The notes under the pieces were generated by a model, which was not told the DNA's origin, made no database searches, and saw nothing but the letters and a program-made list of their open reading frames with translations. 64,000 nucleotides of DNA from Octopus vulgaris (Eukaryota), in assembly GCA_951406725.2 (NCBI GenBank), contig OX597843.1, positions 8,494,001 through 8,558,000 of the forward strand, given 5' to 3'. Shown one piece after another: positions 58,511 to 58,916 of this stretch (its first letter is position 1; the number at the start of each line of letters is the position of its first letter). The position numbers and the translations under genes are program-made.

Positions 58511-58904
58511 ATAATATTAATTAGAGACAACACCACTATTATGCAAATCAAACAAAGAAAGACTTAATCCAATACATAAAAAATTTTATATAAATTAAAT
58601 AAAATTAAGTTATCCACTACAATTGTTTCCTGTCACTTCTAAGGACATTCATCAGGTGGTTTCAAGACCTTCTATTCAATTTTAAATTATGAAGTAATTA
58701 CTTCATAATTTAAAATTGAATAGAAGGTCTTTTCATAATTTAAAATTGAATAGAAGGTCTTGAAACCACCTGATGAATGTCCTTAGAAGTGACAGGAAAC
58801 AATTGTAGTGGATAACTTAATTTTATTTAATTTATATAAAATTTTTTATGTATTGGATTAAGTCTTTCTTTGTTTGATTTGCATAATAGTGGTTTTGTCT
58901 CTAA

Positions 58905-58916
<12 letters not shown>
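58511..58916. repeat. Near-perfect spacerless palindrome with one HHR in each arm
   Basis: Centre gaagtaattacttc (58691-58704); HHR ccac CTGATGA atgtc..gacag GAAA caatt GTA gtgg at 58766-58811 (+) and 58614-58659 (-). Confidence 0.92.

Follow-up and report, generated by a model that had tools for sequence, protein, structure and literature searches.

A palindrome at about 58430-58916 of a 64,000-nucleotide stretch of Octopus vulgaris DNA (hereafter the window; contig OX597843.1 of assembly GCA_951406725.2, positions 8,494,001 to 8,558,000) is best read, with a probability of roughly 0.75, as one short insertion into (TA)n of an endonuclease-bearing (EN+) Penelope-like element (PLE) with Hydra-type motifs, in which both arms are copies of the spliced 5' leader and were likely made by both ends of one cut priming on one sense RNA. 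Membership in a repeat family, two fixed 3' ends, one end type per arm, a missing GT-AG intron, a sharp 5' edge, and matching pairs of arms were all read directly from the DNA. The inverted layout and the ribozyme of such elements are already known; literature searches, octopus included, returned no spliced leader-only PLE palindromes and no PLE twin priming (a mention in older papers or supplements is possible), and within that literature the spliced leader-only palindromes were found to be undescribed. With hundreds of arms that carry or lack the same intron, the DNA of this family bears on how PLEs build inverted ends and keep introns.

The inverted-repeat arms of the window locus (58509-58693 and 58732-58916) are each 185 nt long, 99% complementary, and differ by one substitution. 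The palindrome centre lies between 58697 and 58698 with no spacer and is flanked by a perfect 34-bp arm, and a 30-bp tandem duplication occupies 58702-58731 and 58732-58761. A first-pass annotation made from the sequence had described near-identical arms without a spacer, a 30-bp duplication in the right arm, and two divergent hammerhead ribozymes (HHRs), all of which were borne out (the hammerhead cores start at 58770 on the plus strand and 58655 on the minus strand). The boundaries it gave, 58511 to 58916, do enclose a palindrome but are too narrow, as the left arm extends to approximately 58430 by way of an ~81-nt tail that is common to family copies and missing from the right arm; this tail had been overlooked, as had the splice junction and the retrotransposon from which the copy derives. 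The outer edge of the tailed arm is blurred by AT repeats, and with both ends of the insertion in (TA)n, no target-site duplication stands out from the repeat. The features of the locus, together with those of an older relative in the window, are collected in the table.

Table. Features of the palindrome and of an older relative; positions are those of the window.
Feature	Position	Strand	Basis
Tailed arm: spliced 5' leader (exon 1 and exon 2 with hammerhead) to the long 3' end	58430..58697	-	family copies with the same layout
Tail of ~81 nt, on the tailed arm only	58430..58510	-	comparison with family and full-length copies
Minimal type I hammerhead motif, left copy	58614..58659	-	core scan, subfamily variants
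Exon 1, 29 nt, abutting exon 2 at 58669/58668; 5' edge a putative transcription start	58669..58697	-	intron-bearing copies and a public contig
Extra 5' piece (~33 nt): exon 1 and 5 nt of exon 2, junction 58726/58727; first duplication unit	58698..58731	+	
Untailed arm: spliced leader, junction 58756/58757, to the short 3' end	58732..58916	+	
Minimal type I hammerhead motif, right copy; putative cleavage after 58807	58766..58811	+	
(TA)n target, left flank	58363..58429	.	
(TA)n-rich target, right flank	58917..58999	.	
Older, heavily truncated head-to-head family copy with the tail on the right arm	24359..24500	+	80-84% to family, arms 82% alike

An assembly or library artefact could in principle produce a structure of this kind; the flanks are microsatellites, and no public read or contig bridged the locus centre or the 30-bp duplication, with ~3% of one raw-read run covered. 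However, one base and the tail set the two arms apart, the asymmetric layout recurs at dozens of loci, and a contig from the independent public run X6 contains a head-to-head centre of the same family at a depth of 74, so that an artefact is considered extremely improbable for the locus as a whole. The 30-bp duplication alone could be an assembly error; duplications like it are rare, with one other locus (L026) among 71 spliced arms.

To place the palindrome in its family, the genome was searched with a 38-nt end motif, which yielded 1440 exact matches against 0 for the control in the 2.8-Gb genome. The first 100 of the 1440 matches formed the sample that was examined, and they correspond to 69 loci and 70 insertions, all on C1. 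Head-to-head pairs account for 51 of the 70 sampled insertions, and the remaining 19 had no partner within ~1.5-2 kb, two of which turned out to be 4.7-kb palindromes. Every arm terminates in (TA)n at either of two fixed 3' points, which lie ~81 nt apart, and the end contexts of 192 arms revealed an insertion preference for (TA)n. When the sampled pairs were re-called by motif, 45 consisted of a tailed and a short arm, three of a short arm and a tail-only partner, and one had a partial tail, while none was two-tailed; 15 of 16 further pairs likewise have one tail, the exception being L021, which has none. The centres vary from locus to locus, and the single recurring centre (L019 and L023) has the tail on opposite arms. 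Since longer copies lead to an open reading frame (ORF) with reverse transcriptase (RT) and GIY-YIG domains, this layout is assigned to the known footprint of Penelope-like elements, an inverted pLTR with a tail.

The older relative that had been noted at 24369-24490 was recovered as well (80% over 113 nt). The recent origin claimed for the 58511 palindrome is agreed, but not on the ground that spacerless palindromes are unstable, because palindromes with 82% arm identity persist. An intron-retaining palindrome of 4.7 kb (L109:989-5800) is present a second time, flanks included, at a distance of 373 kb on C1 (L110), and its 1852-bp arms persist at 99.3% identity around a 1-kb asymmetric centre. 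The palindromes at 25600, 54143 and 55467, which had been grouped with the one at 58511 as signs of a shared integration step, are indeed palindromic; however, 25600-25632 (a 33-nt hairpin), 53640-54250, and 55466-55622 share no sequence with its family. The segment at 53640-54250 holds two direct monomers of ~326 bp, which have a minus-strand core resembling a hammerhead (53760), and then an inverted partial copy at 54143-54250 (90%), and belongs to a different family with a retrozyme-like layout. No hammerhead core was found by core scan in the hairpins at 55466-55622 and 25600-25632, which are possibly MITE-like or ends of DNA transposons.

The first-pass annotation had also proposed a recurrent fold-back step during integration. 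Recurrent inversion is upheld by the family, but fold-back is not, given that the tailed piece is often shorter than the untailed arm or does not overlap it. In a fold-back, the cDNA of one sense RNA would snap back at its 3' end, copy itself, and be trimmed at the short end. Such a route explains why paired arms always match in splice state and subfamily, as well as the spacerless centres, it accommodates the 27 pairs out of 50 whose 5' ends are similar, and the ~33-nt extra piece at the window locus could be a short snap-back product. Nevertheless, it demands that the untailed arm be contained within the tailed arm and an additional cut exactly at the short end. Among the 50 pairs, in which arm lengths were determined by BLAST against one reference and some assignments (e.g., L081) are artefacts of that single reference, the untailed arm is longer in 12 and the tailed arm in 11. 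The untailed arm is clearly longer at L069, L087, L096, L097, L062, and L109 (by ~1 kb at L109), and at L031 and L083 the partner of the untailed arm is tail sequence only; these eight loci contradict a fold-back, which is regarded as unlikely.

The parent element was found by walking upstream from longer family copies to the end of an ORF and then to full-length units. The order in full-length copies is a leader with hammerhead and tail, ~60 nt by which the tail runs on into the ORF start codon, the ATG, RT, GIY-YIG, a 3' UTR of ~1 kb, exon 1, the intron, the HHR, and the end of the element. RT motifs, along with a GIY-YIG-type domain at the C terminus, were read in L182, L173, and L199, physically joined to the leader, and the same sequence stands before and after the ORF in L199, L200, L201, and L203, which is the pLTR arrangement. 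The translation of L182 contains DKT, a CxCX5C linker, and CxxC and CxH around the conserved E and N residues, and has no CCHH; L199 has KWK in place of RWK, with an R two residues before. Searches of Pfam and PDB sequences with pieces of the ORF returned no significant match, and a Pfam GIY-YIG scan of the genome gave 148 matches, none of which was tied to the family of the palindrome. On motifs, with Pfam and PDB unmatched, the parent appears to be an EN+ Penelope-like element of Hydra-like type. In the same genome, another young GIY-YIG family (L147, L152, and others) has many open frames of 781 aa.

The motifs of the Hydra clade as described by Craig et al. 2021 (PMC8557442, in part) include the same C-terminal GIY-YIG, DKT, CxCX5C, CxxC/CxH, absence of CCHH, hammerhead, and (TA)n target. 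Compared by motif, the octopus parent differs from that clade in KWK for RWK, in length (the L199 unit measures ~5 kb from leader to 3' end, as opposed to "generally <3 kb"), in its long 3' UTR, in an intron of 0.7-1.3 kb, and in an asparagine-rich insert. This insert lies between RT and endonuclease in the parent ORF (L173:3938-5206, minus strand; L182:430-2664), and inserts of this kind have been reported in rotifer Penelope elements, as described in part of PMC3846280. Pieces upstream of ORF-bearing copies (L250, L244, L245, L260, and L270) often end ~50-70 nt inside the ORF, and L250 has three 281-bp tandem units; these features may mark an extra start site or template jumps. A long AT-rich leader without a hammerhead core within 600 nt upstream of the tail was observed at L239, L255, L261, and L267-L269; in these subfamilies the ribozyme may lie further off, or may have diverged or been lost.

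In each hammerhead motif of the window palindrome the two core boxes are accompanied by a stem I of 4 bp, a stem II, and a stem III of 1 bp that is capped by a palindromic tetraloop, and this palindromic loop III alternates between AATT and GATC among subfamilies. A stem III with a palindromic loop is as reported for the dimer-type minimal hammerheads of Penelope-like elements, and the occurrence of such motifs in pairs, on opposite strands and 100-700 bp apart, was likewise already described in the same work (PMC4209133, in part). The hammerhead call rests on core motifs and stems, because an Rfam scan of the window was silent at the gathering score (0 matches). Furthermore, when the hammerhead region was folded freely, the hammerhead was not the lowest-energy fold in context and did no better than shuffles (z +1.06). 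Isolated hammerhead-like cores were also seen in the window at 56741 (minus strand) and 7767 (plus strand); the former is beside (TTA)n, with a short stretch of flanking sequence repeated, which suggests another PLE family.

The first-pass annotation had further suggested that a transcript of either strand would fold into a hairpin that silences the ribozyme and yields dsRNA. The hairpin part is in line with the prediction of a very stable fold for the read-through RNA (-299.5 kcal/mol over 495 nt), which would bury both ribozymes, whereas no support was obtained for the silencing or dsRNA role. A selected RNA device, in which the antisense arm silences the ribozyme or produces dsRNA, has this predicted long hairpin in its favor, but the layout is the default insertion product of the family, arms are truncated at all positions, and the whole hammerhead exon is present in just 41 of 114 sampled arms, leaving such a device with very little probability indeed. 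The ends of these 114 arms were compared with the predicted cut: 26 end 0 to +11 nt after it, 21 within 48 nt before it, 26 further downstream, and 41 extend past it entirely. The peak of 5' arm ends at +4 to +6 after the predicted cut coincides with the start of AT-only sequence, where alignments extend by chance, and is confounded by it. The window insertion is an ordinary and probably inert one, likely to be a dead end with its hammerheads as passengers.

Long copies of the family contain a GT-AG intron of ~0.7-1.3 kb exactly where the arms in the window pass from the 29-nt exon 1 to the hammerhead exon, and both of these arms carry the spliced junction without the intron. A GT donor, an AG acceptor, and precise loss in derived copies, the sequence features of a spliceosomal intron, were found in several subfamilies. 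Because both halves of the palindrome lack the intron that is present in longer copies, the template of the arms was likely the 5' portion of one spliced RNA. The precise junction also occurs in subfamilies without repeated bases at the splice sites (L059 and L081), and template jumping is therefore disfavored. Genome-wide, exact patterns that leave some subfamilies uncovered matched the spliced junction in 415 arms and the unspliced acceptor in 136. The spliced junction combined with an upstream motif had 1 and 2 matches for the two motifs used, plus L128 in another subfamily, against 13 intron-bearing arms of the covered subfamilies, counted among 41 rows. Of exon 1, 8-36 nt are retained in 29 of 29 spliced arms on C1, and 21-31 nt in 21 of these. 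Since spliced arms almost never continue upstream, we infer that the hard 5' edge in exon 1 corresponds to the transcription start.

The distribution of splice states was then compared with the relationships among arms. In a tree of 101 rows (57 arms spliced, 44 unspliced; one arm per locus, without arms that were truncated or could not be classified and without one segmental duplicate), 23 state changes were counted, at least 12 of which are forced by well-supported branches, and a single clade of spliced copies was rejected (AU p 3e-65). Identical exon-2 sequences occur in spliced and unspliced copies, and the subfamily of the window palindrome has intron-bearing genomic copies, as well as a public contig in which its exon 1 is followed by the GT donor. 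These data indicate that spliced copies arose many times and not in one lineage. They also weigh against the idea that the palindrome belongs to a non-autonomous mini-element or retrozyme-like family that was spliced once and spreads as a unit with the palindrome. Hundreds of copies do lack an ORF, the 29 sampled arms closest to the window sequence in the first tree are all spliced, and HHR-bearing non-autonomous derivatives of PLEs are known (bioRxiv 10.64898/2026.07.22.740005, in part). A family of that kind is nonetheless highly improbable, given the rejection of the single spliced clade, the identity of exon 2 to that of intron-bearing copies, the intron-bearing members of the window's own subfamily, and centres that differ by locus, with the one that recurs bearing its tails on opposite arms. 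The animal non-LTR retrozymes of the same preprint, as far as its available part describes them, are also short, non-coding, and PLE-related with a type I hammerhead; theirs, however, are head-to-tail tandem monomers, whereas the octopus family consists of head-to-head leaders regenerated from intron-bearing parents. Tandem HHR monomers were absent from the sampled spliced copies, and the window locus has a single head-to-head pair.

The intron also bears on self-priming on an antisense transcript, which PMC3846280, in its accessible part, proposed for rotifer Penelope elements to account for head-to-head palindromes and intron retention, leaving undecided whether the template is antisense or unspliced sense RNA. 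This model was built for head-to-head geometry, and the 136 arms that keep the intron acceptor are compatible with it. Yet an antisense RNA would stay unspliced, while 415 arms hold the precise junction in many subfamilies, L059 and L081 included; in L202 and L203, which are full-length and keep the intron, the 5' end falls inside exon 1, as a sense RNA predicts; and the in vitro template of PAc, the Poseidon element of Anolis, is sense (PMC11167929, in part). Antisense self-priming is accordingly rated slightly below even the mini-element in probability for this family.

Twin priming on a sense RNA makes the further prediction that both arms derive from one template, and the pairs are consistent with a common source. 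The two arms have the same splice state in every one of the 23 head-to-head pairs from C1-C4 (15 spliced and 8 unspliced, with two of the 8 being a segmental duplicate), and independent draws from the 89 spliced and 40 unspliced arms of this set would, by our own arithmetic, mix ~43% of pairs. In the HHR region (first 50 nt of exon 2) of 29 pairs, partners differ by 0.83 edits on average, with 13 of the 24 total edits coming from one deletion in L032, compared to 10.9 edits between loci, and none of 10000 permutations equaled the within-pair likeness. Over the last 87 nt of the arms the agreement was weak, with the partner as the best match in only 13 of 29. Rare templates are present in both arms of a pair, namely a foreign 5' sequence at L103 and a read-through at L235. 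It should be noted that one RNA molecule and two RNAs of one source locus are indistinguishable from these data, and that inter-arm conversion could add likeness. At L103:2175-2473, an identical foreign segment of ~150 nt is attached in both arms where the exon-2 acceptor would be and ends in a pyrimidine-rich AG, and this looks like a captured piece of host or alternative upstream sequence.

The model resembles LINE-1 twin priming, in which a single RNA is copied into two cDNAs, each primed at one of two nicks, and an inversion results; the L1 pieces represent separate portions of the RNA, and the position of the second start varies. In the octopus family, each of the two starts has a fixed place and the templates of the arms usually overlap. 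Under the preferred reading, both ends of one cut in (TA)n would each prime cDNA on the spliced sense leader, with the enzyme starting at two internal leader sites such that one cDNA begins at the short site and one at the long. Each cDNA would run toward the cap and halt where the RNA begins; head-to-head joining of the two cDNAs would then occur at a 4-nt AT palindrome, with the 30-bp duplication (exon 1 and 5 nt) representing a slip or a short snap-back at the joint. Comparable activities have been described for PAc in vitro, where both strands are nicked and extended, a dimer is predicted, and reverse transcription of a sense template has two internal start sites, in agreement with the ends of the tail (PMC11167929, in part). 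PAc resembles the family in that two internal start sites define the tail, both strands are nicked and extended, and cuts are AT-rich; it differs in that its sites lie inside the ORF, ~30-40 nt apart, whereas those of the family are in the 5' UTR. Inverted arms and splicing are left unexplained in the available part of that work, and the family data offer concrete predictions for the existing PAc system. As drawn from these sequences, the twin-priming model argues against both the published antisense self-priming and a simple fold-back.

A broader proposal, which we judge to be evenly balanced between right and wrong, joins these observations: the inverted ends of PLEs would be an obligatory product of twin priming, in which a dimeric enzyme uses both cut ends, one sense RNA, and two fixed sites. 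Use of the 5' copy of the sites would give short, "strong-stop"-like spliced palindromes, and use of the 3' copy would carry the intron along, which is rarely spliced there. If this is true, intron retention in Penelope elements needs no antisense template; its significance is given as unknown in the relevant part of PMC8557442. Among 44 tail-to-ORF read-through matches, those that reach the junction comprise one spliced copy (L199, with 7 nt of exon 1 before the junction and the 3' intron retained) and four unspliced copies, and since the ORF-bearing copies that extend this far are thus mostly unspliced at the 5' end, intron retention by way of the 3' copy is supported only in part.

The Penelope elements with the closest parallels are those of rotifers and flies. 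Insertions of the Pen2a_Av type, with an inverted pLTR and a tail (PMC3846280 and the Fig. 2 legend of PMC8557442, both in part), have the same head-to-head truncated copy beside a direct copy with a palindromic joint, and likewise a tail at one end, a hammerhead in the pLTR, and an AT-rich target. The window locus has this inverted, 5'-truncated copy and one-end tail; it differs in the missing ORF, in the splicing of both arms, and in a tail of ~81 nt instead of the usual 30-40 nt, and the near-strict end rule was measured here. [quoted passage not shown] Most genomic copies in D. virilis keep the intron, whereas spliced leaders outnumber intron-bearing arms by ~3:1 in the octopus. Elsewhere in the window, positions 42000-54000 display a strong G skew that comes from long purine-rich and TGG microsatellite tracts.
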